A DNA stretch of 64,000 nt, from assembly GCA_964035545.1 (NCBI GenBank), contig OZ037767.1, forward strand, positions 10,550,581 to 10,614,580, read 5' to 3'. This DNA is from Bugula neritina. Lineage: Eukaryota; Animalia; Bryozoa. Below, in pieces: positions 856 through 63,005 of the stretch (its first letter is position 1; each line of letters begins with the position of its first letter). The notes below the pieces were generated by a model. That model made no database searches, was not told the origin of the DNA, and saw only the letters and a program-made list of their open reading frames with translations. Made by a program: the position numbers and the translations under genes.

Positions 856-12477
<11,622 letters not shown>

Positions 12478-36676: not shown

Positions 36677-37917
36677 GACTAATTACTTCAAAGATGAGTT
36701 AAAAGGAGTAACTAAGATAATATTGGTATTTATCTTCAGTAAAATTCGAATGCTAGTTATAGCGTTACTCTTTACGTTACGATTTACATAACGTAAAGCT
36801 TAACACCAAAAGCTGCAATTTGAAATTTAAATATTATACCTGTGTAATAAAAAGTTTCAAGTTATAAAACACCTTTGTATAAGCAAAATATGCATGCTAC
36901 TATCACTGTAAAACCCACAAACAACTGTGTGTCATGAGCTATGGTACTATAGGGAAACGCCATTTACTTAGCAATTATTTGACTGCTATATTAATATAGT
37001 GACTGCTTTATAGCTGGTTTAAAGAGAACAGCAATGTCAGCTATATCATAACAGTTTTAAATAAAATAGCAACTACGGAACTGCAGTATCATATATTAAA
37101 GATAATTTAAACTACAATCATTTTGTAGGTCCATAACCAAAATTATGGTATGTATCACGTGCATTCTGCTAGTTAGAAGAATCAACGGATTGGTGTCTAG
37201 TGGAGTGATATATATTTAATTTATTTCCTAACGTTCCTTGTAGACCTTACCTATCATGAGACTAAAATACAATTAATTCAAAACATAGAAATGTAAATAA
37301 TGTCATATAACAGATTAATATGTAAAATGACTGAAACAGTTCAAACCAAATGTATGCAAATGTATAACAATGTATAATTAGTCAAATGTATAAATAAGCA
37401 ATTATGGATCCCAAAAGTTATTACCTCTTTCCTCCTTTTATGTGAATGTGATAATTAGGTTTAACCTTATCCAAATTCAAAGACAAATTCAGACTGAATA
37501 CTAATTTTTATAACACTATTTTTTCAAACTAAGATAGACATCTCATCCTTCCGTTGTTCTTCTGATATTTTGTATACCTACTCAAAGCTAATTATTAGGT
37601 TGCTATCAGCTATAAAGCTAGCTTTCAATATGAATAGCTGTCAAATTACAGCTAAGAAAAACTGCCTTTCTACGTAATTTATACCGTTACTGATTATATG
37701 GAATTTACATTGTACCGAGTTATAGTTAGCCTTCTGTTGGTTTTGAATTTAAACCAGACTATACCTATACTATACATTACTGCATTCAGCCTTAGAAAGA
37801 GAACGAGGTACTACTTTTACTATAACTACCTATATATTAACTTTTTTTCATTATCTAAAAATTAATGTTTTGACTAATTACATATTACTGTTTTATTTTT
37901 GCATATTTTAAATTTTG

Positions 37918-38311: not shown

Positions 38312-38796
38312 TTATTTGCCTGATGATTCTGCACAGCCATAATAATATGTAACTGTACATTTACATTTGCTGTCTGAGAAACTATCGTAATCATAACCCT
38401 TTCCTGAACAGAATGTCTTACAGTAGCTTTTTCCATCACAATCTCCTTATATTGGCACTAAAACTGTTGAAAAAAACAATTCATTTAGAGTACTTTGGCA
38501 AAATTAGTAACTTTATTTGTATGATGGTAAACTTTGTGACAGGGAGACAATGGCGTGCATGGAAGTATAAACATAAATAGTTGCATATGGTGAAGTTTGT
38601 AAAACTACATATCATAATAAGACATTGTGAAAATACAAACTTTGAAGCTAATCTCTGCATTCATTGTATATAAATATTCATTACAAAAATACTTTTTTTT
38701 TGATAATTTTGTTATTTCTGCATTACAGACTAACTTCAACTTACCCAAGGCGCTGATGACCATACTGACAATCACAATTACACTGAGAATCTTCAT
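38312..38796 (-). pseudogene. Cys-rich peptide copy A (near-identical to B, single nonsense codon)
   Basis: Exons 38796-38745 and 38463-38312. The Tyr TAT of copy B is TAA here (38449-38447), just before the mature peptide. A MITE also sits in its promoter. Confidence 0.8.
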
Positions 38797-39278
38797 GTTG
38801 TTTCAGTTTCTATAATATTATAGGTAAATAAATGAATGCTGATTAATATGCATATACATGTAGAAGAAAATCAGCTTTAAAATAAAACACAATACCTTTG
38901 ATCTAGAAATATTTAATTAAAACTAGAGAGTACCATATGTATATTTTTTTATATTAGTATTGGCCGTAACATTTGTTGTGATTATACACATGATAGTATG
39001 CAATTCATAATGTATTTTGCTGCCATAATTATATACGAAACATATGACTATAGATATTTCTTCAAAAACGTTCTAACAAAATAATAATATATTAAAACAT
39101 AATAAACTCACTAGACGCAATAAAAACATTTACCCGACTGTTTTAAACAAGCAATATGCATACAGGTGAACTTACCCGTAATTACTATCTGTGTCTGTTG
39201 CTTGTCAGAATATGAGCAATAAGAAAGCTAGCTGAAGCTTTTATATACAATTGGCAGGTTCAGTTTCAACCTTAGTTA

Positions 39279-39593
39279 GCCTTGGGCCACACGGTGCGTA
39301 TTTTCGCATGCAAAAATTGAAATCACAAGTAGCAAAGGTGTCGACTGTAGCGTCAGTAATGCGTGATAAATAAAGCTTTCATTTTTAAATCGCACTCGCT
39401 TTCAATAGAACGCAATTTGCTGGAATGTAGCACTAAATTAAAGAAATTGGGCTCGCTGAATAGCTACCAGCCAATTAGGTGATGATGACAGAGACGATTC
39501 GCACTTATCGCTCAGCATTTTCAACAGTGGACACCTTTGCTACTTGTGATTTCAATTTTCGCATGCGAAAATACGCACCGTGTGGCCCTAGGC
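39279..39593. mobile_element. PIF/Harbinger-type MITE (315 bp, ~65-bp TIRs, TTA TSD)
   Basis: GCCTTGGGCCACACGGTGCGTATTTTCGCATGC... / ...GCATGCGAAAATACGCACCGTGTGGCCCTAGGC, flanked by TTA on both sides. The empty site is visible in the other arm (~42560). Confidence 0.88.
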
Positions 39594-39939
39594 TTAGTTC
39601 GTAGCTTTCAGTTGATTGGTTGAGAATTGTTTCAAGTGGCAGAAACTATTATTTTGATATGGAATCTAATACATACAAAACAGTGTTACTTACAAAGAAT
39701 AATAATTGGTGTGAATAGAAACAGAGTTGATGCTGAGTAAAACAAGAACATGCTATGGAGTGCTAAATTTTACACTCATTTATGTATCTCATGTTCCCAC
39801 AAAAACACTATCAGATGTCTATAATAACTAGGAGATTATATGTTGTATTATATTCACATGGTGTTTGTAGGACAGGATAGTTGGTGATGAACAAAACAAC
39901 AATATGCAATACAATTACAGTAAGTAAGTATAAAAGTTA

Positions 39940-40349
39940 TCCCCTATTCACACTTTGCCGTACTGTACGCCGTAACAGCAAATGTCTGCCATCTTCGATA
40001 ACATTCAGGCTGAATCGTATACAGGTATACTTTGCGGAGTTGATCAAGCGGTGCTTGATTCAAAAAATCCCTATGTGTAGAGTTGATCTGGTACTAAAAT
40101 TTAAAGAATATTTTCCGCTAGTCAATAACGTTTCTATCATATTTTTTGAGAAAAATTGTGCGAAATAATTTGTGGATAATATCCAAAGGCGTACAAGTCA
40201 CTGCATATCCAAAGACAAGAATTAGCTTTATTATGATTGGTCACAGCTCAACGTCATGCGTACTTTTTTCAGTGTGTGAACGCATGTAGACTAAACGTAA
40301 CAGCGGCGCCATTTTGTTTGTGCTGTTATGGCTAAGCGTGAATAGAAGG
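39940..40349. mobile_element. PIF/Harbinger-type MITE (~410 bp, TTA TSD); truncated inverted copy at 41265-41456
   Basis: Ends TCCCCTATTCACAC / GCGTGAATAGAAGG flanked by TTA. The paralogous segment at ~48535-48560 (agtaagtatgaaacTTAcagtgttcggct) shows the empty site. Confidence 0.78.
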
Positions 40350-41480
40350 TTACAGTGTTTGGCTACCTACAAAATCTCAATAATAATGATTAACAACACA
40401 CTGCTGGTTACGAAAATGAAGTTCAAACAGATAGAAAACAGCTAACATTAGGGGTGTACATATTACCGTACCACAATGTATAACTTGGGTTACTCAGGCT
40501 TATAGCTACATCCAATAAAACACACATAGTGACATTGCTCTAGAATGTTTTGTAAAATATAGATAATATGTTTAATGTGCAGCTGTGTGCTTTTGCAAAA
40601 TTTGAATTATGAAATTAGGATTCCGTACCTTAATCAAATGACAAAGAATGATCAATCAAACAAGTTTGTGATAATTATATCTCAATCTGTATCAATATTT
40701 AACAATATAGGAGAATTGATATTTAATACTGACAATAAAAACAATCTAATGGTGTTTCTATATTCAGCTACTACAATATATTAAATAACACTTCAAATTC
40801 ATTTACCAGAGTTATTCTTATTACAATCACATTACCCATTTTTGATGACTAGATCATATTCTACTGTAGATATATTTTTTCATTTACTGCCAAATTACTT
40901 CTGAAAACCGAATATCACTAAAACGCAAGAACTTTATCACTTAGTAATTAGGGTCAGAATTAAAAACCTTTTATTGTTTAATAAAAATGTAAACTGATAA
41001 ATGTTGTTCATTGTTTAACACAATAATGAGTATATAGTTAGATATTACATCTCTTTCAGAACATTCAAGGCTACCATGATGATGAGTTTGAACAACTAAA
41101 GGTTGTTCTGTGATGCTACTTAATGCAGGTTTTAATCTCTGATGCTTGCTGTTTGCAACTCGCCTCTTTTCATCAGATTTTTGCATATACTAATAAATTT
41201 TGTTTAAGTTGCTTTACATGAATGAATACTGCATGTATATTTCATTTTCTGTTGTTTTACTTTCAGCGGAAAATATTCTTTGATTTTTAGTACCAGATCA
41301 ACTCTACGCAATAGGAGCCTCACGAAATTTTTTGAATCAAGCACTGCTTGATCAACTCCGCAAAGTATACATGTATACGATTCAGCCTGAATGTTATCAA
41401 AGATGGCAGACATTTGCTGTTACGGCGTACAGTAGGGCAAAGTGTGAATAGGGGATAACTTTTATACTTACTTACTGTAA

Positions 41481-42219
41481 TGGGGCTGCCACACTACAGT
41501 CGAAACGCAACTGTGAACGCCTCTGTGATGTCACAACTGTCTGATATCTGAACGCAACTGTCAGTTTTTCGCGATGCGATGAAAGTTCGACATGTCAACT
41601 TCAGCGATCAGCCTATCACTGACTGGCCAGGTAAGCCCTGATTGGTCAAGTGCTTTCACTTATTTTACCTGCTACTATAAGCCAGCATTATTATTTGAGT
41701 TGGTTCTTCGAAAATTATATTATTTTACTTTTAAAATAATTAGGATGAAGTTATGTATGAAAATCTTAATAAATTATGAAAATAACTATTTATTAGATAA
41801 ATTTTGCTGAACTTTATCTGCATATTTATTTTTTGTAATTTGGTTGACTTTTATTAGCGTATTTAGTTCTTTAGGCTAGTGGATGAGCTAATAAAGTTAA
41901 ATAAAGCTAGTAATTTTGAATAATTGAAGCTGGTAAATTAAAATACAATTGTCTAGTAAATCTTATTAAATTGTGCCAGTAAATCTCAATAAATCGCGCT
42001 AAATTTGATTGTTGGTTACTGCGGATACTGCAGAAACTGAGTTATGGCATTCCTATTGGTTAAAAGTTTACTACCGGGCTGGAGACAGTTAGCGTTCATC
42101 GTTTGTAGTGTGAACTGTAGTGTGACCAGCAAAAAGTAGGACAAGAACGTTGAATGTATGCCCGAGCAGCTCCAAAATAGCTGCCACAGTCGAGTTTCGA
42201 CGGTAGTGTGTCATGGGCA
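41481..42219. mobile_element. PIF/Harbinger-type MITE (~740 bp, TAA TSD)
   Basis: Imperfect TIRs containing CACACTACxGTCGAAACxCxACTGTG; TAA duplicated at 41478-80 and 42220-22. The empty site is in the other arm (~39915). Confidence 0.82.
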
Positions 42220-42534
42220 TAATTGTATTGCATATTGTTGTTTTATTCATCACCAGCTATTCTGTTCATGACATCTCTACAAACACCATGCGAATATAAT
42301 ACAACATATAATCTCTTAGTTATTATAGAGATTTGGGAGTGTTTTTGTGGAAATATGAGATACATAAATGAGTGTACTATTTAGCACTCCATAGCATGTT
42401 CTTGTTTTACTCATCATTCACTCTTATGTCTACAATATTTCTACTTACATTAATTATTATGTTTGTAAGTAACACTGTTTTGTATGTATAAGACTCCATA
42501 TCAAAATAATAGTTTCTGCCACTTGGAACAGTTC

Positions 42535-42670
42535 TCAACCAATCAACTGAAAGCTACGAACTAACTAAGGTTGAAACTGAACCTGCAAATTGTATATAAA
42601 AGCTTCAGCTAGCTTTCTTATTGCTCATATTCTGACAAGTAACAGACACAGATAGTAACTACAGGTAAGT
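42535..42670 (+). promoter_or_regulatory. Core promoter and non-coding first exon of peptide gene B
   Basis: CCAAT at ~42539, TATATAAAAG at 42593-42602, Inr-like TCATATT ~30 nt downstream, donor CAG|GTAAGT at 42664. The layout is conserved at A (~39175-39250), C (~45715-45790) and F (~58863-58940). Confidence 0.7.
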
Positions 42671-43042
42671 TCACCTGTACGCATATTGCTTGTTTAAAAC
42701 AGTCGGGTAAATGTTTTTATAGCGTCTAGTGAGTTTATCATGTTTCAATATATTAATATTTTGTTAGAACGTTTTTGAAGAAATAGTTTTAGTCATATGT
42801 TTCGTATATAACTATGGCAGCAAGATACATTATGTATTGCTTACTATCATGTGTATAATCACAACAAATGTTACAGACAATACTAATAAAAAAAATTATA
42901 TGGTACTCTTTAGTTTTAATTAAATGTTTCTAGATCAAAGATATTGTGTTTTATTTTAAAGCTGATTTTCTTCTACATGCATATGTATATTAATCAGCAT
43001 CTATATAATATTTACCTATAATATTATAGAAACTGAATCAAC

Positions 43043-43523
43043 ATGAAGATTCTCAGTGTAATTGTGATTGTCAGTATGGTCATCAGCGCACTGGGTAAGT
43101 TAAACTTAGTTTGTAATGCAGAAATAACAAAATTATCAAAAAATTAGTTTTGTAATGAATATTTATATACAATGAATGCAGAGATTAGCCTCAAATTTTG
43201 TATTTCCACAATGTTTTATCATATTATGTAGTTTCACAAACTTTACCGTATGCAACTCTTTACGTTACTTCCATGCACGGCATTGTCTCCCTGTCGCAAA
43301 GTTTACCATCATACAAATAAAGTTACTAACTTTGCCAAAGTACTCTAACTGAATTGTTCTTGTTTCAACAGTTTTAGTGCCAATATATGGAGATTGTGAT
43401 GGAAAAAGCTACTGTAAGACATTCTGTTCAGGAAAGGGTTATGATTACGATAGCTTCTCAGACAGCAAATGTAAATGTACAGTTACATATTATTATGGCT
43501 GTGCAGAATCATCAGGCAAATAA
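43043..43523 (+). CDS. Secreted six-cysteine defensin-like peptide precursor, copy B (intact, 67 aa)
   Basis: Exons 43043-43094 and 43372-43523 (phase-1 GT-AG intron): MKILSVIVIVSMVISALVLVPIYG-DCDGKSYCKTFCSGKGYDYDSFSDSKCKCTVTYYYGCAESSGK*. Hydrophobic signal peptide; spacing C-x5-C-x3-C-x14-C-x-C-x7-C. Confidence 0.85.
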
Positions 43524-44749
43524 TCCTTGACCTGGCTTTCACCTTTCAGTTAAAAACATAAATGTATTTATCTGATTACATTTGTTTAAGACAATAAATC
43601 TGTCATATGCTGATTAATTTTGTTGTAAAACTAAATATTTCACAAATAAAAGCAATATAAAATGCAAGTGTTGGCTTCCAATTGTTTTAATTTCTCTGTA
43701 AAAATAGGCTGCATGTTTAGTGATGAATATTCCACGTTATTTAAGTCTAAATCTGAGGCATTCCAGTTTATGTTTTAGCCTCTAAGGCAGAAACTTGAAG
43801 CTATATCAATAAATAGCTAAGCAAGTTCACCTTAACCTCTAAACAGCAATTTAGAAAGAAAATAGCTCTATAATGCTCAAAAATTTATTTTACATTCCCA
43901 ATACAGTTCTTGAATGATTAAAAAAATGTATAACAATTAACATAATTTGTATACAGTATGTATCATGTTATATCTTTTGTCATCTCAAAATAAGAGCTCT
44001 TGTGTAAATCAGTTCTTTTTCAATTGCTGAATATTTGCTTTATATCTTCACAGACATAATATTTTGGAATGCAACCATATAATCAAAGATAGGAGGGAAA
44101 ATTATTTTAAAGTAGTAAGAATTATTTAAGAATGTTCAGAAGTAAGTAATTTGGAGAGAAAAGATGAGAATTAATCAAGATGGCTACACCAATTCAATCT
44201 ATGCAACAAATTTAAATTGGCACTCTTGTACTTCATTATAGTTAGTAACAAATACAAACACATACTATTATAACAGCTTCTGTACAAGAAAGTTGTTTCT
44301 GGAAAATATAACATATTTATAAACCATATCATATAACAAGACTCTATTTTTACATTATAGGCTACTATTTTATTGCTTATAAATGTCAAGTTATATTTCT
44401 ACAGATATACAAGTAGGTTAATCAAGAAATTGTGAGTTCAGATTAATTTCACCCTCAAGCAAAATTAAATGAAGTTCACTGTAACTTGCACTTCAAAGTT
44501 TTATAAAAGAAATGCAGCAGAGCTATATTAGAAACAACTTTAACATTATCGTCGAACAATTTAATTTGCTGATCACCAAAGAATTAGCAGCAATTGAGCA
44601 AGTGTTTTAGCATCCCATGTGCCACTGTTTTTATTGTGCAAAACAAATGTCTTACAAAAAAAAACAGCGTATTACCTTTAAAAAAGAAAGTATTCAAACA
44701 ACCAGAAAAGCTGTTCGTTAAAAACTGAAAGCCATAATTAGCTCAAGGA

Positions 44750-45227
44750 CTAGTTGCTTGAGCTACTAGCACTACCATTTTAGTATTTAGTGATGGCAAT
44801 GCATATACATTCTTTTCCATTGAAACTATAATAGCCTACTTAGTATTCTTGCGTTAGCAGAGTGATCTACAAGAATCCTTTCCAGTGTAGTGTTGGTACT
44901 GTAAAAAGAAATAGAACACAGGTTATTAACATTGACCATATTGGTAGATTTATTTGAATAATGCTAAATTTTGTAGCAAGGAGGCAAGACAGGAGGTGAA
45001 AGTAATATGAATAGTAGAATTTGTAAAGTTATATAGTGAAAACCAAAAGTTTGAGGCTAATCTCTCTGCATTGGATTTGTATTAATATTTAGCAGAAATA
45101 TATTTATTGTTGAAGTTACAGATATATAAAAATTAATTTTCTATTTCTGTACTACAAACCAACAATTTAACTTACCTAATGCACTGATGACTATACTGAC
45201 AATCACAATTACACTGATAATCTTCAT
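44750..45227 (-). pseudogene. Cys-rich peptide copy C (frameshifts and stops)
   Basis: Signal exon 45227-45176 (MKIISVIVIVSIVISAL) is intact. Exon from 44898 reads ..GKDSCRSLC*RKNTK*..YYSFNGKECIC..KY*, out of frame with the signal exon. Confidence 0.75.
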
Positions 45228-46199
45228 GTTGACTCCGTTTTTATAACATTATAGGTAGATATTATATGGCCTATAGATGTTTTTGTATACGTAAAAAAAT
45301 GTAAGCTTCAAAACGTAATACCCTTCATAAAAAGCAATTTGCTATTAAATTTCTAAAGAGCGTTTTAAAAAGTTGCTTGATAATAGTTATTCGTTTGCAA
45401 CTATAGTTTTTCTGTATAGTCAAAATTGCTTACAGGTACTTTCAAAAAAAATTTTGTTTTCTTATTTCCAAATTAAAGTAAGGATTGCTACGATGTTTTA
45501 CTTTTGTTTTTTGTGCAATTTGTTTAGAAAGCCAGTACATAATGGTTGTTTCTTAAAAGTCATATCTAAATATGATATATTTGATCGAAATAATAATTTT
45601 AAAGTAGCAAATAAAAAAATTAAAATATGATAAACATGCTAGATGTAAAAAATAGTATAATAATAATTGTATGAATTAGAACATATTTTGAGCAAATCTG
45701 CTTATATGTGAACTTACCTGTAAATACTATATGTGTTTAATACTGGTCAGAATATAAGCAATAAGAAAGTTAGTTAAAACTTTTGTATACAACTTTTAGT
45801 TCAGTTTCAACTTTAGTTTTAACATTCAGTTGATTGGCGATCAGTGACTGCCAACTATGTGAAGCTATTGTTTTGTCGTTACAGAATCATCTATCTGCAG
45901 CATAAACAGTGTGACCTTCATCATTCTCAGGTGTTCCGGTTAGTAACCGCCAACTAAACATAATTTTTATTCGACATAATGCCTGATCAATACAGCTATA
46001 TTACTTTGAACTCATATCCTGAGATTGTCATCATTACAATGGCATCCTTTTTATTTGGCCAGATCACATTGTTTTTATATCTGATGACTATAGATCATAG
46101 TATATACTAAACATGCAGTCAAAATTAATTGGGGGAAAATGAAGATTGAGAACAAGAACCTCATCACATAGTATTTAGTTTCATAATCTCAAGTACTAT

Positions 46200-46294
46200 G
46201 AAAAATAATTGCCCCACTAGGATTCGAACCACAGACCTCTGGTTTTGAAAGCAGGCATGCTAAACCATTACACCACAGGGGCTACTTGGTAAAC
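46200..46294 (-). repeat. tRNA-like unit of the same family as 50722-51043
   Basis: Reverse complement GTTTACCAAGTAGCCCCTGTGGTGTAATGGTTTAGCA...GGTTCGAATCCTAGTGGGGCAATTATTTTT shares the flanks as well as the tRNA-like core. Confidence 0.65.
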
Positions 46295-47018
46295 ACAACA
46301 CTACATACTATATTATGACGTTTGAAAATGATATATATATATATAAGTTAATAAACTGATGAAAAGCTGTCACTAGGTGTTTGACTAAATAGTTTTTGCT
46401 GTGAAATATTTTCTATGTTAATTTAATGCTTTTTGCAATAAAAGCAGTAGCACATAAAATGCGCAAATGTTTTTGTTCCAATTGTTTTCTTTTTTTTCAA
46501 AATAAACTAAATTTTAGTAGTGAATTTAAAGTCAGTTTTCTTTTGGTTTAAACTTAAAGTGGCAATTATATACAGTAAAAATCCTTCACTGTGGACTAAC
46601 AATGGAGTTAAAATCATTATTGTACTCGTAGCTATATTATATAACTTCACCAGTTATACATGTTTATTCAGCCATAGTTTATATTATTTGATTATAGTTC
46701 TGCTACAAGTCCCAGTCAATGCTTTATTATCATCTTATTCGACACACTCACTCAACGGTTGACTTTTTTTGCACTCATAATAACATATTTTATTAATTTT
46801 AGAAAGATGTTGTAATACGATGCTATTGTAAAATTGTTTTCCTCTGGCCATTTGCGTATCTACAATTTCTTACATTTTCTTACTTGTGTAGACTATGAAT
46901 GTGCAACAATAAAGCAGCAATCTCACCAGTTAACACAACAAACACTACATTGTTTTTCAAATAATTTTTTTTAATCAAAGGGCAATAAGGTGGGCGTGCC
47001 AACATGCAAAAATGGGCG

Positions 47019-47168
47019 GGTGTGTGTGTGTGTGTGCGTGTGTGCGTGTGTGTGTGTGTGCGTGTGTGCGTGTGTGCGTGTGTGCGTGTGTGCGTGTGTG
47101 CGTGTGTGTGTGGGTGTGTGTACATGTGTGTGCATGTGTGTGTGTGCATGTGTGTGCATGTGCGCGCA
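47019..47168 (+). repeat. (GT)n / (GCGTGT)n microsatellite
   Basis: Directly visible; source of the HT/VC-repeat ORFs. Confidence 0.95.
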
Positions 47169-47839
47169 AGTGCCCGCGTGAGTGAGCAGGTACGTTTTAT
47201 TAGAACAAACAAATCTGATATTTCGGGCACCTCTGTTTCCATCTTCAGAGTAACAATGAATGATCACAATTCAAAAGTTATGCGTTAAACACTATGCATG
47301 ACATAAAGTATAGAGGGTGGAAGTTATTTCAGATTATTTAAACTGAGGTTGATAATCTCATTTTATATTACATTAGTCAAAACAAATTCTACAGATTTCT
47401 TTAAGGAAACGGAATAGCTGGGTTGATAGTATATAAAGAGTAGGAACTGAGAGTTATGCCTAAACTACTGCAAGAATATGCACTTTGGCTGAATATATAT
47501 TTGGTGAAGTTAGCTTAGAACTGTACAGAAACATTGATGCGAGTGAACTTATGTTGGCACTGTAGTCACATTACATGTGCATACACTGGTGTGACAACTC
47601 CGTATAACAGCTGATGTCTTGTCACTTCACTCTTCACTGCTGTCATCAAACTATTCAATTTTTCTGGCAGTAAAATTAAACAATCTAATTAATACAAGTT
47701 GTTTTTATTAGTGAAATATTGGATTTATATATCAAAAGTAATCAAAAGCAAAAAAGAACTGTTGTCACAAACAAAAAATGTAGTCAAATGAACAAAAATA
47801 TTGCTAGCTGAAAAGTGAAAGCCATAATTAGGTCAAAGA

Positions 47840-47977
47840 TCACCTACTCAAAAATTCACCATAACCATAAGCAAATGTAACGCTACATATATATCTGCTG
47901 TTCATCGTAATTCTTTTTTGCACAAAATTACTTGCAGAAGCTTTTACCATCACAAGCCCCATTTGTTGGTACTAAAA
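47840..47977 (-). pseudogene. Cys-rich peptide copy D (orphan mature-peptide exon)
   Basis: VLVPTNGACDGKSFCK*FCAKKNYD, then a frameshift. No signal exon found upstream. Confidence 0.75.
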
Positions 47978-50289
47978 CTGTTAAAAAATACAAAATTTAG
48001 TTAAAGTAGTTTGACAAAATTAGTTAATTTATATTTTGGACATTTTTAACATTTGTGACAGGGCGACATTGCAGTACATGGAAGGAACATACAGGATTGC
48101 GTAGCAAAGCTTATAGATCCTACATATAATAAAACATTGTGGAAATATAAAATCTGACACAAATTATATAACACCTGTATTGGTTTATATAAGTATATTA
48201 CTAATTATTAGTGAAACCTTTTATAATTTCTATAATAGTCATGCATAATACTGTTTTTAAAGATTACAATGAAAAATGCCCATTAATTTAATAACATATG
48301 GCATCTAATTCCAATTATCATATTCAAGAGAACTTTATATGCTAAGACTTTAGAAGAATACTTAGCTAAAATTTGGAATAACTGCTTATACTATTACCAT
48401 GAAACAGAGGTTTGCTATATATTGAAAGTAGCTATAGGAGATTACCTTGTACTATATTCACATGGTGTTTGTATAGATGTCATGGACAGGATAATTGGTG
48501 ATGAGTAAAACAGCAATATGCAATATAGTTACAGTAAGTATGAAACTTACAGTGTTCGGCTGCCAACGCAATCTCAATAATAATCATTAACGTACTACTG
48601 TAAAAGAAGGTGAGGTCCAAACAGATAAACATGCAGCTAGCATATGCATATGCATCACCATAACACAATGTAAAGTTTAGGTTACTCAGGCATATATAGC
48701 TGCGTCGAGGTATATAAGTCGTAGTTTCAACCAGTCTATATCTGCATCCAGTTAAAACACATATCATGACATTGTTCTAGAATGCTCTGCTAAGAACATG
48801 ATATGTTCTATAGACCTTTTACAGAGGTTCATGATATTCTCTTTACAATTAGGAGTTGTGTTCTCCTAAAGTGAATAAGTTGAACCTTTGTATAAAGAGC
48901 AAACTCATCAAAAGTTTAAAATTTGACTGCTACTTAAAATTCTAATTATGCTATAGAATTGTTATTTTATGAGATACGTATTTTGGTATAAGCATACATT
49001 GTACATATTGGCAGTTCAAAAAAAATTTTAAAAATATCTTTTCATGGATAATTTTGACGGAAATAAACTTGAAAGATGCATTTTTGTGGTTTTGGTTATT
49101 ACTGAGCAATGCTAAAGTGGCAATCTAGCATTGCTCAGCAACCAAAACCATAAAAACGAGTTCATGTCTATTTTCCTCAACAAATTTCATTTTGCGAGAC
49201 CACAACTCTTAACTGTAAGGAGGACATTAAGAACCTCTGAAACGGGTCTATTTGCAGCCGTGTGTTTTTGCAAAAGAAGTTCGATAAATGTCTATTATAT
49301 ATATTATCCCCAAATAATTTTAATAATGAAATATAGATCACGTGAGCCTTGATCAAATGGCAAATAATAATTGATCAGACTAGTGTGTTTATGGTGATTA
49401 TATTTCAATTATTTTGATGTTAAACAATAGAGAAATTATATTTAGTATACTGACAAAAGAGGCCACCTAAGGACAATCAATATTAATCATGTTATACCAA
49501 GGTCATCCTTACTACAATAACATATTATCTGTGATTGCCAGAACATAATATATAAGTTCTACTAAAAACTATATTTTCATCTGTAGTCAAATGTAGTTCT
49601 GGAAATTGAATTATATTGCTACAATGCAAGAACCTTATCACATCGTAGTAAGTGTCAGAATTTTATAAATTCTTACTTTTCTATTGTTCCATGGTGATAA
49701 AATGTAAATTGATGAATTTATAAATAGTTATTTCTTATTTGACATAGCGAGTGTGCATATGTATGGGTCATTTTATTTAATATTGTAATAATTTCCAGGA
49801 TTATCATATTGAGGTGGATTCTAATGTGTGCAATTATTGTATCAGTCGAATTACGTAACTTAGTAGAACTACCCAAGCTTTTAACGTGAAGAAGAGTATA
49901 AGTATATTTCATACAAATATATAAACAGATCACATCTAGTTACTCTGACTTAATGTAGGAAAAAGGTAGTACTGTACAAAACGTCGTCCGTGTGCTATCA
50001 ACTACATTTCCTAACTAACTGTCCGGAAGCTATCTGCTTAGTCGGGGGTAATCACGTTCCTCAACGTGATTGGAGACTCCTATAGTCTATCGTGCCCCTG
50101 CATCCTAATTATATTTATATATATATATTATTATTGCTATATATGAGTTTACATAACAAAAATCAATCACATAATAGTTCAAAGTATTTCAGACAGCACA
50201 TTTAAGTTATACGATATCGATTAGACAAAAGAAGTTATTCGTATTATATACAATCATAAAAATTTGTTCATTCGGTAAAAGAGAATCAC

Positions 50290-52731
50290 ATGATGAAGGT
50301 AGAACGTGAGCAAGACTGGCTGTTCGTTGCAGGTATTTCAATATATACTTTAAAATCTTGATACCTTTAATATGTGAAATGAGTGTATCCCTCTGAGTTT
50401 TATTATAGATAAAATATTGCAAAAGATAATGTTCCAACATTTGTTTTTCAAAATTTAACTTTTTCATAAATAGTCCAAGTCATAAAGACAAGCAAATGCA
50501 CTTTATGCAATTGCATCACAATGCATGCTTTTTACAAATGATACTTTGCACAAAAAGCTTTTTTCAAAACTTTTTATGTTACTTATTTAAACTATATTTT
50601 CTAGACATTGACTTTTAATGTCAATGCAACAATTGTTGCGGGGTTGTATTTATAAAAAAAAAAAATATATACATAGTGGTTTTTGCTGTAGCGGTTAAAT
50701 AAATGGTAATTGTAGAGATAAGTTTACCCAGTGGTCCCGGGTGTAATGGTTAGCACACTTGCTTGCAAGCCGCGGAGGTCTCGGGTTCGATTCCCAGTGG
50801 GGGCCATTACTTTTCAAGCTATTTTGGCCTGTAATGAAGTATAGCAGTAGTACTCCGAGAGAGTTGAGAGGTTAGGGGAGCCTGAAGACTGAAGAAGTAG
50901 TAGATAGGCCAGTGGAGTTCAGAGAACTGGGTGGGATGTAGTGATATGTTTACCCATGTAGTCCCCGTGGTGTAATAGTTAGCACACTTGCTTGCAAGCT
51001 GGAGGTCTCGGGTTCGACTCCCAGTGGGGGCAATTATTTTTCATTAATTAGCTGAATTGTTTAATGTTGTTTCTCAAACAATCAATTATTAAGCAAGTCA
51101 TTTCATAACTTTTATCAGATTTTGAAAATATAATGTTATATATATTCACTTTTTTATATCATTACTTATTATCTGATTGAAACTGAAAACAAGCTTTATA
51201 TACTTTTTTGTAGTGCTATTACACCTAGTGATACCTGTCACAAGCCAATGCGACGCTGCCACTGACAGATTCAGAAGATACAGTGTACCAGAGAGCAGGT
51301 CTATCACAGATCATTTGACTGGTGAATCAGTATTCAGTCCAGTTCATGGAATCTGTCTGCTTAGATGCACAGAAGGAGAAAAGTGCAGAGGAATCATTTA
51401 TGATGCTCCACAGAAAAGATGCTTTTTGAAGGATTGTCTGAATCCGCACTTTTTTGTTAATTGGAACGGATCAGATCCAAACTATAGCATTCAGATTTCA
51501 CAGAGAATCAATGTGGAGCCAAACAAACTTCTTGCAAGAGGTATGGAGTGTTGAATTCCAGTAACAATTATGAAAATATTCGGTCATTGAAGTTTTAACC
51601 TTTTATAGGCACTTCATCTTTTAATAAAATTTGAACCTAATGTAAAAAGCTATTTATTAAAATGTTGATCAATTTATTTGACTCATCTTGTAGGAAAACC
51701 TGTCAATATCTCAAGTGTTTATGATCCAAAAAGATTTTCAGCATCGTCAGCAGTGGATGGAGTTTACCTGGTAAATGAGGTACTTGGCAAACATTTTTCT
51801 ATGGTTCACAGTGAGGAAGAATACAGACCCTGGTTAAGAGTAGATCTGGTGAATAATTACTGTGTCTGGGCTGTCAACATTCTCAACAGAGAAAATGGTA
51901 AGGCTAGTAATTAATATACAATTTCTCACACAAAACTACACTAATATACAAATTTATGCTTATGACCCTACTTTTGTGCTAAAACCTTTTTTTGGTAAGG
52001 TCTACAGCAATTTTTTATTTATAGTAGGTACATACTTTTTGAAAAAAACTAAATACTTCCAATAATGGAGTACATATAGAGCAATACTTTGATATAAAAC
52101 AGTTTAATAAATAGGAATTTTTGCTTTCACATGGAGTTATCATGCTCTTTGAACAACAATTTCTTGCATATTGCCAACTTTTTGTATTCGTGTATCTAGA
52201 GTGTGCAGTCTCACCTCAAAAGTACATAAAACTTTATTAGATTAATCTGGCTTGAATCTGTGCATAAATAAGTTGCTATAAATTGCAACAAACTTTCTCA
52301 TATTTTTTGTGTGCCTCAAACAGTTTTGGTTATTATTCATTATTTAAATCAAAAACCTAAAACTTGTTGATGCAATATTATAATAGTTTTATATCATGAT
52401 AAAAATCCAAAAAATGTTGTTTGATTCAGAATACAAAACAAGTGTTGAATGTGCTCTAATATATATTTTTTAACCTTTTTTGCAAGCTCTTAGGAAGTCT
52501 TGGTGGGAAAGATCTATGAATGCTGAAGTTACAGTTGCTATGACCGAAGAAGAAATAGAATTTACTGGAACAAACCCTGAAGTCTTGTGCTACTACCATG
52601 ATGGAATTCTCAACCAATCATTCACCTTAGCTACTTGTAAACAACCAATCAGAGGCCGTTTTGTTCAGATTTTGCTTAATGCTACAACTATTCTAAACAT
52701 ATATGAGATAGAAGTTCATGGAATTTTATAA
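50290..52731 (+). CDS. Secreted PAN/apple + F-type lectin (fucolectin / F5/8 type C-like) protein
   Basis: Predicted exons 50290-50332 (tentative), 51214-51540, 51694-51897, 52487-52731, all phase 1. PAN-like CLLRC...C.GIIY...CFLK; F-lectin motifs LARGKP..SS, ASSAVDG, H...RPWLRVDL, V..LNR, C...IRGRFVQI, LNIYEIEV. Confidence 0.8.
50722..51043 (+). repeat. Two tandem tRNA-like units (~225-bp period); tRNA-derived repeat or pseudo-tRNAs
   Basis: TGGTGTAATxGTTAGCAC (A box) ... GGTTCGAxTCCC (B box) at ~50732-50804 and ~50962-51031, each followed by a T-run. The anticodon stem does not pair cleanly. Confidence 0.7.
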
Positions 52732-55687
52732 AACGACAAGTGAATGAATACTATTTTATAATTGTTTGTGTTGAAGCCATTATTGATTTTTTTTATCTTT
52801 TTTTATGTGTCTAAAGTTGTGTTGTAATTATGTAGCATACCTGAACTGTTTTTGGGTTCAAACGAGTTTGGACGGATTGAGGGTCAAGAGAGACAATTCA
52901 AGGACCTACTGACAATAATTTATACTGTATAAGTCAATTATTTTTAATAAGTGCTATATTTTGGTATAATCATAGACACAAATTACCTATAAATACAAGT
53001 TTCAATTCATAGTTTTTTTTTTCTTTTTTCTACTTAGCATAATGTTGCATATAGATTATAGACATTTAAACCAAATGCTAGTTATCATATGGAAATACTC
53101 ACCATCATAAAGATGATGAAGAGCTTGGTGGTTGTAGATTAAATAATCACGCAGAAACGAAATACCCAACTGTTCTTGTGATTTGGTTTCTCTTGTAATT
53201 CAAGTATTGTATAATAGTTGTTATATTTCAAACTGCAAACTATATGTAGCAATATACTACAATAAGTTTGGTAAAATGATTTGCAAAATTGTTAGTAATT
53301 TTATTTCTATGGAATACACATTTGAAAGATCAATGTTGAAACCAACTGCATGCAGTTACTAAATAAATACAAACTTTTAATCAGTATGACAAAAAGTTTA
53401 AATTCCAATGCAAATAACTGGTTTCTGTTATGTAAACAGCATTTTCGATAATGTTTCTATGAAGTTATGACAATTTGGAATCTGTTTTAAATAAAGGTTT
53501 TCAAATATTGGTCTATATATTATTAAAACTATTTACCTAGAATATTTTAACAGCTCATTTGTAATTCCCTTAATTTTTTAAGAATATTTCAAAAGAAAGT
53601 TTCTAGGTCAAGTAAGGTCTGTAATAACTTTCTGAAATATGCAATGTGACAAAGTTGAGACCAAAAAAATGCTCTCTAACTGAAAATAACAATAATCTCA
53701 CAAATATTAGGAATTCAAGCAAGCCGCAAGTGGTGTCTAAATTTATGTTGAATCTTGAAACATCTTTTCCATATAAAGCTAGAAATCTTAGCCATTAGAC
53801 GTCATAAAATCAATAACTCATTTAAATATGTTTGTGAAAATATATTATTTTATCACTAGATGAGTTCATTGACTATAGAAAATTGTGTGAAGCCTTTAAA
53901 TCACCTACGTACAACTTTCTTCCAAATGTTATCAACTCTACAAATCAAGAACGTAAATATACTGGCAGACTAAACCTAATTGCTTTTTGCCTACAAATTC
54001 AGATATTATATATTATGAAAAACAACTCAAAATAGTGTTGAACCACACACAACATAAGCTATAATATGTACACTATAATATTTTATAATTGCCAGAGTAA
54101 AAGATATATGCAAAAGCAGAAGCACCATTTTTTATAAATTGGAAGGTTTCAATTATATTCCCCAATTTTTTGTTTGTGTTTCTTTTTGTATGTCATTTCC
54201 AGCTTTTGTGTTGACAGGCATAACATTTTTGATTGGTGAAGTACAATGTGTTTTTAGCAGTGATGTCATAGCAGACCCTTTTCCAGTAACTTCCATACCC
54301 CTTTGCAATTAAAAGTTGTGTCCTCCCAAAGTGAATAGGTCAAACCTTTCAATAAAGAGCAAGCTCATTGGAAATAATTTATACAGTTTGTCTGCTACTT
54401 GAAATTTTAACTATGTAATAGACTAACATTTTTAAGATATAGATATTTTGGTACAAGCACGCATATTGACAATTAAGCTTTTTTTTAAATTATTCTTTTA
54501 TGAAAAATTTTGAAGGAAATAAACTTGAAATCATTTTTGTGTGGCTTTGGTTATTAAGCGATGTCAAAGTAGCAGCTATGATATAAGTCCCATTAATCAT
54601 TTGTTGTGCTCTTTAAAGTATAATTACTTAAACATGCTAAAACAGTCAACTCACTGGCCGTAAATCCCATATGCTGTACATACATGTAACCAGCAGGCAT
54701 GTGCCCTAAGACAGTGCAAGCTTTAGTATACAGACCTGGAACTAGACCAATTAAGAGTTAGAAAGCCAACAGATATAAAGTGGTGAAAGCCAGCACAACA
54801 ATTGCTAGAACAAATGTTAAAGTTTTTTTGCAAAGTTTTTTTTGTGAGACGTTATATCAAAATAATTTGGCTTTGGAAAAAAATTTCAAGAAAGCTGTTA
54901 CATCTTTTTGCTCCTTAAAAAGTATTAAAATTAATTTAGCACACTATTCATATAACAGAAAAAACAACTCCCTTTTAAAAAAGCACATATGAAGTATTAA
55001 TTTTCAAACAAATCAATTCCAAAACATTTACAACAAAGTACTTGGTAATTAGTATAATGCTATATAATAGTTAAGAGCATGAAAAAAATAGTATTTTATT
55101 TTACACAAAAATACTGGTAATTTTTTTGGAAGTAATAGCATTTTATTCATCAATTAGGTCAATTGGCAGCTGATTATTAAAATATTATTTTAAACAAATT
55201 TCTAAAAATCTTTAGAGATAAATTAGGAAAGTTATTGAAAGCGTATCAATTAGTTAAAAGAAAGAATAGTAAAGCATATTATATAGTAGGTTGATAGCTA
55301 AGCGTAGGCTCAGAGTTATACTAAAATTACTCAAATAATATAAACTTGGGCTCAGGATACATTTTTTGAAGCTGGCTGCATAGAACTGTACAGACACATT
55401 GACACAAATGAGCTCATCTTGGCTCTATAGTCAAGTTACATATGCAAATACTGGTGTGACAACTCCATATAACAGCTGGCATCATGTCATTTCACTGCTA
55501 TCATCAAACAATTTATTTTTTCTGGCAGAAAATATTAAACAATCAAAACAAGACAAGTGAAATATTGGACTTGCAAAAGAAAAAGGCAGCTCAGCAAAAA
55601 ACTTTATTATTCTGGACAAACAAATGTAATCAGGTAAACAAAAATATTGCCAGCGGAACAGTGAAAGCTATATAATTAGGTCAAATA

Positions 55688-56161
55688 TCACCCACTTGAA
55701 GATTCACCACAAGCATATGCATATGTGCATGTACCTTTGCTGTTTGAGTAGCTCTCATAACCATCATAATCTTTTCCTTCACAGTATGACTTGCAGTTGC
55801 TCTCTCCATCACATGCCCATCCGCCGGTACTAAAACTGTTAAGAAAATACACTTTAGTTTGTGAAATTTGACCAGATTTTTAAATGCATTTGTATGATGC
55901 TAATTTTTGTAACAGTAAAGTGACATTATAGCATATAGAAATTGTATAATAATAATTAGGCATAGTAGAGTTTTTAAAGTTAATAACACATTAAGAAAAC
56001 ATAAAATCGGTGGCTATAATAATCTATACCTGTATCGATTGATGTAAATCATTATATATTACAGAAATATTTATTTTTACTATTTTTGTTATTTTTGTGT
56101 TACAGACTAACCATAACTTACACAGTGCACTGACAACTCCAGTTACACTGAGAATCTTCAT
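55688..56161 (-). pseudogene. Cys-rich peptide copy E (1-nt deletion, shortened signal exon)
   Basis: Signal exon 56161-56122 (MKILSVTGVVSAL) is 12 nt shorter than in B. Exon 55835-55688 has GGGCATGT instead of GGG GCx TGT (frameshift). The ancestral frame reads CDGESNCKSYCEGKDYDGYESYSNSKGTCTYAYACGESSSG*, with the fourth Cys lost. Confidence 0.75.
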
Positions 56162-56899
56162 GTAGCTTCAGTTTCTATAATATATCATAAGTAAATATTA
56201 TATTATTATAAATGCTGATTGTATTATAATTTATATGTAGTAAATATTATATGGATGCTGATTCACATGGCTTCTTTTCTTTCTTTTAACCAATTAATTG
56301 CTGAGCTGTTATGACCTTTTTATAAAGTCTTCTTAGACTTGTTCAAAACTATGTATATTTATTCATCAGTTGCGAATTGACCTATCTGTTGAATGGAATA
56401 CTCTTACAATTTTACTAGATTGTTTGTGCAAAAAAAATTTTTTTTCAAGTTTTCTTGTAATTCTCTATATCTTTATGAAAATGTTTAACTAAATTGCTTA
56501 GAAAGGACACAACTCTTAATTATAAATTGGGTATTTGGGACATTTGAAAAGGGCCTATACTATTCATTATCAAAAAACATGTGGCCACCCTGTCATACTG
56601 TAGGCCTTCATCAGGATCAGCCCCACAATAGTGACACACCCCAAAAAAAAGTTGTATGCCTGGGCAATGATATAGGAAGGACATGCTGTTACCCAAATAG
56701 CTTTTTTTCCCTTTTCTTGTTGCTGACAAATTCAAAGAAACAGCAGGGCTGTTACTGTTTGGCAAAAACGCCATCACAGAAGCTGCTACAGCAATGTTGT
56801 AAACAACAACAAACTGCCTTAAGGGCTCCAACTCCAGGTTTGTCCTCGGGGTTCACTCTCCATACAAGCCTTTATCATGGTTGGGTATTGCCACAAGGC

Positions 56900-57105
56900 A
56901 GCGGCCGAGACTTCTGGCTTGCAAGGAAGTATACTAACCATTACACCATGGGGACCACTGGGTAAACTGAACACTTCATTCTACTCAGTTCTCGAAAAAC
57001 TCCACTGGCCTCTTTACTACTCCTCTAGTCTTTAGGCTGCCCTGGCCTTTCAACTCCCCCGAAGTACTACTACACTTTACTAAAGGCTGAAATAGCTTGA
57101 AAAAG
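56900..57105 (-). repeat. Spacer plus partial tRNA-like unit of the same family
   Basis: Reverse complement matches the 50810-50950 spacer followed by GTTTACCCAGTGGTCCCCATGGTGTAATGGTTAG; 3' half lost. Confidence 0.65.
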
Positions 57106-57600
57106 CTTTGAGTTTTTTTCTTTCTTTTTTTTATTTATATCGGAAAGGAAGGGTGACTTTCCGATGGGGGAAAGATGTAGTAAATCTGGGATCTATCTAA
57201 CACTCTTGCGTTATAGATGCCTTAACTGTTTTTCTTTGTGTAAATAACTATGTTTCCTTGTATTTGTTGATCCCTCGCAGGGTCTCCGATCTTTAGTTGA
57301 GTCCGACACCCGAAATAGTCCAGGATGTCCAAAAAATTGGAGGGTTTGGATGTCTGTTTCAGTCGGAAGTCGGGTGCCAGATTCAAGCAATTCGGATGTC
57401 CGAGAGGCGATTGGACACCTGAATTCAGGCTGAAAATTGGGCCTTTGTGCAAGAAATATTTTAGTATAAAAGGCAGCTGGTTTTTGTTGCTAACCTGTCT
57501 TGGCAAGGTATTACTACGGACTACTTGGAACTATTGGCTAACCACTTAACTATATCAGCATCCATTCAATAAACTCTCCGCGTCTACAACCTATCTCAAT

Positions 57601-57812
57601 GGGAGCAGCTGTGGTCTAGGGGTTAGAGTGTTTGCCTAGTAAGCATAAAGGTCATGGGTTCGAGCCCGGACAATGACCATTGGCCATGTTAGAAAAAGCA
57701 TTCAGTCATATTATTTGCCTCTGTGCCTCATCTTAATAAATCCTTAGACTGCTTTAACAAAAACCTCTTCCATCAGGGTTTTCTCACAGGGATAGTAACT
57801 ATAAACCTGTGT
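57601..57812 (+). mobile_element. tRNA-derived SINE (second family)
   Basis: GGGAGCAGCTGTGGTCTAGGGGTTAGAG...GGTTCGAGCCC head, with a body shared with 60006-60200. May extend further 3'. Confidence 0.7.
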
Positions 57813-59756
57813 AAGTTGTTTTATCTCCAAGCTATCTCATCTTGCTCAGACACTCACATAGAGTATATGTTTGATTAGACAATCTGCACGTTTATAACAG
57901 CATTGCTGTAAGGCAGCAGAGGTTCTCGATGAGAGTTTTCTTTCTCCAAGATAAGCTGTCCTCCCAGACTAATGAGCCCCATCTAACTATTGACAAAAAG
58001 TACAACTTGAATAGCTTTCACTTCACTTTGTAACCAAAGAATGACAGTTTACATGCATTCAGTATAAACAGTCATATTCAGTACAATTTGCAAAATCTGT
58101 AGTATGTTGTATGATACTGCTTACAAACTATTTTCAATAAATAATTATTTTGCAACTTTTTTTGAACTGATCAAAACCCTGAAGTTTTTGTTGCGAGGCA
58201 TAATTTTTATTTGAGAAAGAAAAGTAACAAACTCTTGTACAAGGGGGTGAGTTTCAACACCAGAGATGCTGGTAGCAGATTGTACCACAATTCATAATTT
58301 GGATTTAATTTGGCTTATTACTGCCACCAGTCTAAAATGTGTTGATAATATGCAGCTGTGCTTTTACACATTATCCAAAATAATAACCTCAAAAACCTAT
58401 CTTGAATAATGAAATCTAGGTCACCATGTAGTATAACAAAAGGGCATTAAATATTAGGTCAACAGATTTGTAACAATCATCATTTATCGATTTATATCAT
58501 TGAATAATAGAAAAGCCCTTTTAATTTGAGCGCTATAATTACTAAGATGAGGCTATTGGTATAGCAACATTCAATTTCCGGAGGTAAAATTGACGACAAG
58601 CAAAAGTATATTTACAGGATTTTATGATCTGACCATCACAAAAATGTGATATAGGCAAAGTGAGAATCACAAATAATGTGATTATAACGATGGTAGTCCT
58701 GGCATCTGGTTTTAAAGTAGTATAATTATAATACGAATCCTGCACAGTTCTCTTGACCTGGTGCTTTGCTGAATTATACAAACCACTTTGTCCAGTTGGC
58801 AGTTACAAACTAATCAGCTGAAAGGTACCAGCTAAGTAAGGTTACAACTAAACTTAAGAATTGTATATAAAAGCTTTAGCTAGCATTCTGATTGCTCATA
58901 TTATGACAAGTAATTGACACAAATGGTAACTACAGGTAAGTTAACCTATAACCATGTTTCTTGTTTAAAATATTTTCTAATTTTCACCTGTTAGGCTTAT
59001 CCTGTATCAATATATTGTAGTAATTTGTGCAATTACTATGCGTGGGTTTTTGCTTGCGTATTTAGTATGCTTTTCTAACTAGTAATTACTAGGGTAGCTG
59101 CCGTGTAATAACCTTTATTATCCACAATAAAGTACGATACAAACATTATATCAATTTACAATACAACATCAGTCACTACTAATACGTATATACACTTCGA
59201 GTCCTCGCTCACAACAACGTGATAATTGCTAACTACCCGGGAACTGTCACATGGGTCGCAAGTTCATTTTCCGGTTCTTCTTATTAGATAATACATTAGG
59301 GCCTTTAGTATTCCCCGAACGGAGAGGAGATGATTCTATATTATTATACTGCGTGACCCACTACACCATGTCAAAAGCTATTTTAAACCAAAGATGACAT
59401 CCATATTTTTTAAATAATTAACATCCAACAACCATTATGTGAAAATGTGAAATGGAAATAAATTTCACAGAAAAAAAAAATCCATGGTAGTCTTTAACCT
59501 TAATCTTAAATAAGGAATTTTTTTCTCAAGTAACCAATCTTGACTACAAAAATTAATAATATTAATTGTTCTCTACTAAACTAAAAGTCACAAATGAGTT
59601 AATATTATGAAAAAAGGTTTTTAAGATGTTTTGTAGTAGTTTTATTAAATTATTTTTATGGAGGGTGTTGTATTTTATAGCTAACATTCTACTACATATG
59701 CAATAAACATGTATCTATATAATATTTATCTATAATGTTATAGAAACTAAATAAGC

Positions 59757-60469
59757 ATGAAGATCCTCAGTGTAATTGTGATTGTCAGTATAGTCATCAG
59801 TGCACTGGGTAAGTTAAAATTAGTCTGTAGCACAGAAATAGCGAAACTAGTAAAATTAAGCATATCAAATAATTATTAATATACCTACAATCAATGCAGG
59901 TGTTTCAATTTGCCTCAAATTTGGCCTGTTTCAAATGTTTTATTAGCTTTATAAACTTTACTATGCCTTATTATATTGCTTGTATGTACCGTAACACCTC
60001 CTATAGGGAGCAGCAGAGGTCTAGAGCGTTTGCCTAGTAAGTGGGAAGTCATGGGTTCAAGCCCCGACAAAGGCCACTTGTGATGTTAAGAAGAGCATCC
60101 AGTCATAATTGCTCTTGTGCTTCATCTAAATAAGTCTTTAGCCCGAATTAACAAAAAAAACTTTCTATCAGGGGCTTTCTCACAGGGATAGAGACTATGA
60201 ATTTGCCAGAGATTTTTACTGTTAACGCCTCCCCTCTTCTTACATAATTTAGCATTGTACAACTAAGTTTAACAATATCATCAAAGTTCTTTAAACTAAA
60301 TTGTATTTTTTTAACAGTTTTATTACCAATGGATGGAGCGTGCGTTGAAAAAAGTATTTGCAAGTCATTCTGTGAAAAAAAGAGATACAAATATGATAGC
60401 CACTCAGACAAAAAATGTTCATGTACAATCACATATGCTTTTGGTTGTGCTGAAGCTTCATTTGGATGA
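59757..60469 (+). CDS. Secreted six-cysteine defensin-like peptide precursor, copy F (intact, 67 aa)
   Basis: Exons 59757-59808 and 60318-60469: MKILSVIVIVSIVISALVLLPMDG-ACVEKSICKSFCEKKRYKYDSHSDKKCSCTITYAFGCAEASFG*. Same Cys spacing and length as copy B; a SINE sits in the intron. Confidence 0.85.
60006..60200 (+). mobile_element. tRNA-derived SINE (second family) in the intron of peptide copy F
   Basis: Colinear with 57601-57812 (…tttgcctagtaag…gtcatgggttc…cagtcata…ttctcacagggatag); absent from the introns of the other peptide copies. Confidence 0.7.
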
Positions 60470-61755: not shown

Positions 61756-62004
<249 letters not shown>

Positions 62005-62749: not shown

Positions 62750-63005
62750 AAAGCATGTGATGTAGTCAGTTGTATATATAATATAGCATATAGTATAGTC
62801 AATTATATGTATCTTATAGCATATAGTACAGTATATAGCATGTGGTATAGTCAGTTGTATGTATAGTATAGCATATAGTATAGTATAGCATGTAGTATAG
62901 TCAGTTGTATGTATAGTATAGCATATAGTATAGTATATAGCATGTAGTGATATAGTCAGTTGTATGTATAGTATAGCATATAGTATAGTCAGTCATACGT
63001 ATAGT
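62750..63005 (+). repeat. ~45-50 bp degenerate minisatellite (TAGTCAGTTGTATGTATAGTATAGCATATAGTATAG…)
   Basis: About five copies directly visible. Confidence 0.85.

Follow-up and report, generated by a model that had tools for sequence, protein, structure and literature searches.

Which peptides does a small cluster of six-cysteine genes in the bryozoan Bugula neritina encode, and what might they do? The cluster lies in a stretch of 64,000 nucleotides (nt) of contig OZ037767.1 (GenBank assembly GCA_964035545.1, forward strand, positions 10,550,581 to 10,614,580), which we call the window and to whose first letter, position 1, all coordinates below refer. Within these 64,000 nt, to which the copy count applies, self-comparison and profile searches identified six paralogous copies, A to F, between 38.3 and 60.5 kb, with five matches to the signal exon and six to the mature exon. 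Two of the six copies (B and F) are intact, and the other four (A, C, D and E) are broken. We conclude that B and F are almost certainly real secreted-peptide genes, and that the gene family is real and apparently undescribed.

Both intact genes share a three-exon layout, in which a TATA box and a non-coding exon are followed by a signal exon, a phase-1 intron and a mature exon:

42593..42664, plus strand: B, exon 1 (predicted, non-coding) with its TATA box at 42593 and a GT donor at 42665; conserved in B, F, A and C.
43030..43094, plus strand: B, exon 2, with the end of the 5' untranslated region (5'UTR), the ATG at 43043, predicted signal-peptide residues 1-17 and a phase-1 donor.
43095..43371, plus strand: B, phase-1 intron, GT to AG, 277 nt.
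43372..43523, plus strand: B, exon 3 coding sequence, with the end of the signal peptide, the predicted mature peptide at 43392-43520 (43 amino acids, six Cys, GK end) and the stop.
43593 and 43645, plus strand: B, polyadenylation-type AATAAA, 3' of the stop.
58864..58935, plus strand: F, exon 1 (predicted, non-coding) with its TATA box at 58864 and a GT donor at 58936.
59744..59808, plus strand: F, exon 2, with the ATG at 59757, predicted signal-peptide residues 1-17 and a phase-1 donor.
59809..60317, plus strand: F, phase-1 intron, 509 nt, into which a repeat is inserted at about 60006-60201.
60318..60469, plus strand: F, exon 3 coding sequence, with the end of the signal peptide, the predicted mature peptide at 60338-60466 (43 amino acids, six Cys, G end) and the stop.
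60604, 60613 and 60667, plus strand: F, AATAAA, 3' of the stop.

Exon 1 of B and F, with its transcription start, is predicted; its donor reads GTAAGT. In each gene the first coding stretch (52 nt) closes with a phase-1 donor, also GTAAGT, and an AG acceptor precedes the second (152 nt); joining the two produces an open frame of 67 codons, and hence a 67-residue precursor with a 43-residue mature part. The signal peptide, judged by hand, begins with Met-Lys, has a mean Kyte-Doolittle hydropathy of 3.1-3.2 over residues 3-20 and ends in a Gly that precedes the mature part. On these features the B and F precursors are predicted to carry a secretion signal like that of six-Cys invertebrate defensins.

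The mature 43-mers of B and F carry Cys at positions 2, 8, 12, 27, 29 and 37, giving the array C-x5-C-x3-C-x14-C-x-C-x7-C. Six-frame translation of the window, which is AT-rich (GC about 0.29-0.37 per 4 kb), contains this exact array three times, in A (38333-38440, minus strand), B (43395-43502) and F (60341-60448). None of 200 locally shuffled windows carries it, so the array is not due to chance; a looser pattern matched once in the same 200. The mature part of B has six K/R, six D/E and six Tyr and ends in GK, that of F has eight K/R and five D/E and ends in G, and both peptides contain seven to eight aromatic residues. A preliminary description of this DNA had proposed a six-Cys family hidden behind a phase-1 intron, with just this non-canonical array, a charge-neutral, Tyr-rich B, a more cationic F and C-terminal G or GK, and all of these points were borne out.

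It had also been unable to place the family, as were we. Pfam returned no family at E values up to 1, nor at E values up to 10 for 3/3 sequences. A search of 5.8 billion proteins with exon 3 of B, for lengths of 26-86 amino acids, yielded no candidate, the unnamed clusters of the Atlas gave no usable match, and in JGI metagenomes none of 305 pattern matches was confirmed while a 21-nt signal-exon pattern had 0 matches. Among 1.84 billion representatives there was a single match, a 403-amino-acid tandem-repeat sequence without the Cys array, which we attribute to chance. PDB sequence searches returned only rows at E 0.49-4.4, below significance. Full-text literature searches, whose coverage excludes most subscription journals, found no paper on the array or on bryozoan peptides of the cysteine-stabilised alpha/beta (CS-alpha-beta) type. 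In the passages covered, PMC12466427 does not contain the word 'bryozoa' and PMC11561630 lists five bacterial classes, none described there with the B/F array; PMC7203481 has one line on big defensins in Flustra, the sole mention of a bryozoan defensin that these searches brought up.

What fold might such an array support? [quoted passage not shown] The best PDB sequence match for B is agitoxin-2 (1agt; E 0.49, not significant), which aligns without gaps over 35 residues with five Cys matching. Phe of B stands at the fourth Cys of agitoxin-2, and the register 5-3-9-4-1 of short scorpion toxins and defensins is otherwise the same, that of B and F being 5-3-(9+1+4)-1; the cysteine whose absence between CxxxC and CxC the preliminary description had pointed out is thus missing exactly in register. 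This C6 site is occupied by Phe in A, B and C, His in F and Tyr in E, and is deleted in D (Phe/His/Tyr in 5/5 copies that keep it). Since no copy has a Cys there, the fourth Cys was probably already absent before the copies diverged.

In the ten-Cys reference array for CS-alpha-beta peptides (PMC5116183), B and F have C2, C3, C4, C8, C9 and C10, whereas canonical six-Cys invertebrate defensins have C2, C3, C4, C6, C8 and C9. No row of Figure S1 of that paper (533 rows including headings, 2016) has the B/F set, as judged by eye from the spacing columns alone. C6 is missing from rows such as AdDLP, Milnesium defensin 2, the seven-Cys Sd6 of sugarcane, one sequence each from a sponge and a snail, and the mytilins, which have C7 in its place. 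Mytilins, ASABF-6Cys-alpha, Sd6 and AdDLP are precedents for the loss or shift of a non-core disulfide, AdDLP keeping only the two core bonds and Sd6 lacking C6 but having C1 and C10 (PMC5116183). None of these four has exactly the B/F set, and no sequence similarity to B or F was detected.

AlphaFold models were built on a two-sequence alignment. That of B, of low confidence (mean predicted local distance difference test score, pLDDT, 60.8), has a helix at residues 5-14 and strands at 19-23, 26-29 and 33-36, that is, a helix and a beta-hairpin with CxC in the second strand. Foldseek returned short scorpion CS-alpha-beta toxins in 4/4 rows for the B model, at E 5-8, and 0 rows for the F model. 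VIA placed B residues 2-31 on all 30 residues of BmBKTx1 (3e8y), superposing helix and hairpin with a root-mean-square deviation (rmsd) of 1.7 and Z 2.6. Of 48,161 chains in a wide VIA search with B, 73 scored at least Z 2, but none as high as Z 5. Defensin-like LURE1.2 headed them at Z 3.2, level with unrelated rows, and navitoxin superposed with an rmsd of 1.7 over 30 residues. Most rows were glyoxalase-type helix-plus-three-strand fragments at Z 2-3, which we take as a sign of the topology of the B model and nothing more. Atlas leads for both peptides were scorpion-toxin and gamma-thionin clusters (0.76-0.84, lead level only). Several weak lines agree, none of them decisive, and we judge a CS-alpha-beta core in the B and F peptides to be quite probable.

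The same leads raise the possibility of anti-predator or anti-fouling toxins that act on ion channels as scorpion toxins do. The Cys register is that of agitoxin-2, the Foldseek and Atlas leads are scorpion toxins, and the short-chain scorpion toxins of the alpha-KTx group (agitoxin-2, BmBKTx1, tamapin) also have a phase-1 intron within the signal peptide. Against this, no venom apparatus is known from bryozoans. In B and F the fourth Cys of alpha-KTx is replaced by Phe/His, and an extra Cys lies eight residues after CxC. The K-C4-x-N signature of alpha-KTx is absent, the aligned site reading S-F-S-D in B and S-H-S-D in F, which makes a classical potassium-channel pore blocker less likely, K-C-x-N being an important but not essential signature of such blockers (PMC5004176). 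A phase-1 intron is general to secreted proteins and not diagnostic (PMC5308243), and Cys spacing cannot separate a toxin from a defensin (PMC5116183). We regard a toxin function as very unlikely.

Comparison with canonical six-Cys invertebrate defensins gives a similarly mixed picture: B and F resemble them in CxxxC and CxC, in a short n-loop, in size and in the signal peptide, but lack C6 and its GXC gamma-core, have no Pfam match and, in the case of B, are not cationic. Anionic defensins with antibacterial activity reportedly exist. B and F belong neither to the canonical six-Cys defensins nor to alpha-KTx, because defining features of these groups were looked for and are absent.

The explanation that we favour, if with slightly less than even confidence, is that B and F encode secreted CS-alpha-beta peptides whose third disulfide has been rewired to the tail, and which are likely host-defence effectors. 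Both introns would be spliced and the signal peptide cut after Gly24. Cys8-Cys27 and Cys12-Cys29 would staple the helix to the hairpin, and the tail after CxC would fold back as a third strand, with a Cys37-Cys2 bond replacing the usual bond from Cys2 to strand 1. Strand 33-36, if it runs back along strand 2, would bring Cys37 to the hairpin-turn end, where the canonical Cys2 lies. If Cys8-27 and Cys12-29 form the core, Cys2 and Cys37 remain without a partner, and an intramolecular bond between them is the most economical reading and a probable one. The terminal G or GK would be converted to an amide, amidation from a terminal Gly being established enzymology, which would leave 41 residues in B and 42 in F, at net charges of about 0 and +4 respectively. 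The peptides would then bind a specific microbial envelope target via their aromatic-rich sheet; as B is neutral and both peptides have many aromatic residues, this seems likelier than charge-driven lysis.

Several observations weigh against this explanation. In the B model, pLDDT falls below 50 at residues 36-43, the tail; in the F model, at pLDDT 54.6, the hairpin is missing and residues 29-30 are bridged with 38-39 instead; and the structural matches of B are all below significance (Foldseek E 5-8; VIA Z 2.2-3.2). The GXC gamma-core is absent from the hairpin, its place being taken by D-S-F in B and by D-S-H in F. Aphid BCR4 (PDB 7PQW) shares the motif order C, CxxxC, CxC, C with B and F and pairs its Cys (17, 21, 25, 32, 34 and 48) as 17-34, 21-32 and 25-48 in a distinct fold (PMC9604261), so that the array alone does not imply a Cys2-Cys37 bond. 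Turning to function, a search of about 1 kb upstream of each of A, B and F turned up no NF-kB-like site, and synthetic peptides from two comparable families, Zytrisin-1 (PMC5234102) and members of MgCRP-I of Mytilus (PMC4558851), had no antimicrobial activity. The comparison of nonsynonymous to synonymous rates (dN/dS) between mature and signal exons that the preliminary description had proposed as a check also came out unfavourably: between B and F dN/dS is 0.13 in the signal exon, 0.57 in the mature region and 0.78 in mature codons other than Cys, and the value of 0.57 is not distinguishable from 1 (Fisher p=0.17), so that positive selection on the mature region is not shown.

It may be, then, that the peptides are not of the CS-alpha-beta type, their six Cys following the BCR4 pairing (1-5, 2-4, 3-6) or some other, or a bond from Cys2 of one chain to Cys37 of another yielding dimers. 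The precedent of BCR4 and the F model without a hairpin favour this, as does the fold change proposed in defensin-like families (PMC5234102). The gap between CxxxC and CxC is 6 in BCR4 but 14 here, which equals the canonical hairpin length (9+1+4). The spacings as a whole also differ (3-3-6-1-13 versus 5-3-14-1-7), CxC lies in the first strand of BCR4 and in the second of the B model, and the BCR4 type is reported from aphids only (PMC9604261). Moreover, the better of the two models, that of B, builds the hairpin, and we consider another fold or pairing rather unlikely. The CS-alpha-beta identity advanced in the preliminary description thus holds up in the motifs and the B model, and is weakened by matches that are all weak and by the F model.

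That description had further noted nearly invariant signal exons beside diverged mature regions. The contrast stands: between B and F the signal exon has 94% DNA identity and agrees in 16/17 residues, while exon 3 is 70% identical in DNA and the mature peptides share 25/43 residues (58%), with all six Cys kept. Adaptive divergence, which such a contrast could be taken to mean, does not follow from it. Alignable non-coding blocks are 69-85% identical, and B and F differ at 41/129 sites of the mature exon versus 110/522 in the flanks (p=0.014), a comparison biased by the choice of flank blocks as alignable. The synonymous sites of the mature region also exceed the flanks (12/28, p=0.017). In sequence terms, the rate pattern would fit relaxed or mixed selection together with homogenised flanks, and adaptive divergence is not shown.

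Could the cluster simply be a dying relic, in which B and F have lost their expression or their use? The breakage of four of the six copies and a dN/dS of 0.78 in non-Cys mature codons would speak for it. Yet in B and F, whose exons have diverged by about 30%, the TATA box, the splice sites, the reading frame and all six Cys are retained, and exon 3 is conserved between A and B relative to the introns (2/152 versus 42/642 differences; p=0.009), although gene conversion could be an alternative source of this low divergence. Both frames are also intact in the public run X1, which contains the locus. Since this run covers the introns and many of its full-depth positions disagree with the window, it behaves like DNA from a second individual. 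Among the best-supported rows listed, the single X1 contig over exon 3 of B has two synonymous differences and no stop; the contig spanning F keeps the frame, one difference changing Met to Thr in the signal peptide. A relic therefore appears extremely improbable.

For rewired CS-alpha-beta peptides, a host-defence role is predicted about as strongly as not. It is favoured by a secreted, probably amidated defensin-type scaffold, by the conserved leader and variable mature part, and by high gene turnover. A conserved leader, a variable mature part and pseudogenes are likewise the pattern of MgCRP-I (PMC4558851) and of the Zymoseptoria defensin-like families (PMC5234102). MgCRP-I is a lineage-restricted lophotrochozoan family and resembles B and F in its 5'UTR exon, the 17 signal residues in exon 2, the phase-1 intron, the variable six-Cys mature part and the pseudogenes; it differs in its C-C-CC-C-C array and in a pro-region with dibasic cleavage (PMC4558851). 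We see the two as analogous in evolution, homology not being shown.

The same fold could instead serve signalling or recognition, the peptides being ligands in gamete, larval or colony recognition comparable to the plant defensin-like LURE peptides. The neutral charge of B would suit such ligands, the LURE1.2 structure that heads the VIA rows is bound to its receptor, and the cluster adjoins two CatSper-gamma-like genes and surrounds a gene for a secreted PAN/F-lectin-like protein. The lack of antimicrobial activity in comparable lineage-specific families (PMC5234102, PMC4558851) points in the same direction. Gene adjacency in an animal genome, though, says little about function, the Z of LURE1.2 is not significant, and a cluster in which 4/6 copies are broken would rather fit the high turnover of defence repertoires. 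We think a signalling role unlikely, and retain host defence by rewired CS-alpha-beta peptides as the preferred reading.

The four broken copies and an insertion beside A are arranged as follows:

38312..39247, minus strand: copy A, ATG at 38796, exon 3 start at 38463, premature stop at 38449-38447.
39278..39594: insertion resembling a miniature inverted-repeat transposable element (MITE), with 71-nt inverted ends and a TTA duplication, about 30 bp upstream of the A TATA box; absent from B.
44719..45789, minus strand: copy C, a decayed gene, variant TATA at 45789, signal exon ATG at 45227, degenerate mature exon start at 44898.
47801..47977, minus strand: copy D, an orphan mature exon, premature stop at 47930, one deletion, two Cys lost.
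55647..56174, minus strand: copy E, shortened signal exon with ATG at 56161, frameshifted mature exon start at 55835.

Copy A, which is 92.7% identical to B over 1259 bp, arose recently by inverted duplication of B; in this assembly it is broken. At window positions 43266-43555, an X1 contig carries A-type differences at some sites and B-type letters at others, at a depth of 169 compared with about 115-145 for single-copy contigs, which suggests that the inverted pair A/B has undergone gene conversion or been collapsed. The mature exon of C contains stops and frameshifts, with no canonical acceptor in the usual place, and its remnant is recognised by nhmmer at E 4.3e-9. For D, no signal exon was detected within the window. 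Copy E retains five Cys in an out-of-register frame, and neither a TATA box nor an exon 1 was detected for it.

Other features of the window lie around and between these copies. A large multi-exon gene on the minus strand is present twice in tandem (855-12645 and 26413-36850; DNA blocks 68-89% identical); both copies encode CatSper gamma domains (Pfam CATSPERG_C, E 1.3e-10 and 2.2e-10), and by this domain match the pair is a duplicated sperm calcium-channel auxiliary subunit gene. Between them, at 13000-26000 on the minus strand, exon-like open reading frames rich in predicted helical sequence (for example 19493-19807, 22135-22449 and 24094-24465) gave only weak Pfam rows and would form a further gene. 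A three-exon gene at 51177-52731 on the plus strand, between D and E, has a predicted product that is secreted and combines a PAN domain with one of F5/8 type (F-lectin-like), both below the Pfam cut-off; a homologue search with the PAN exon gave 12 candidates, none significant. At 63084-63240 on the minus strand lies a COMTD1-like O-methyltransferase exon (43 residues; Pfam E 1.4e-6), which has five matches, the two named ones being Bugula neritina COMTD1 at 84% and 79% identity. As no further COMTD1-like exons are apparent in 62000-64000, it may be a gene fragment. A second MITE-like element (48810-49251, with 66-nt inverted arms) is partly similar to 54301-54574. Two kinds of tRNA-derived repeats resembling short interspersed nuclear elements occur at 50961-51032, 46198-46306, 57601-57805 and 60006-60201, the last in the F intron; one of them scores as a tRNA in Rfam (36.4 bits), and ARAGORN found no tRNA gene.

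Cys-rich peptide families restricted to one lineage are a common feature of marine invertebrates, and bryozoan peptide immunity is barely described. We tentatively propose, at slightly less than even odds, that B and F represent a new CS-alpha-beta wiring, in which the strand-1 bond is gone and a C-terminal third strand closes onto the N-terminus via Cys2-Cys37, and that they form the first CS-alpha-beta family described from bryozoans, where the peptides may keep surface or symbiotic microbes in check. A family of this type would escape searches built on the canonical six-Cys pattern. With only 43 residues, and one neutral and one cationic paralogue, the peptides should be easy to synthesise, which makes their fold and function directly testable. 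If the disulfide has indeed moved to the tail, the family would show how far the CS-alpha-beta scaffold can be rewired.

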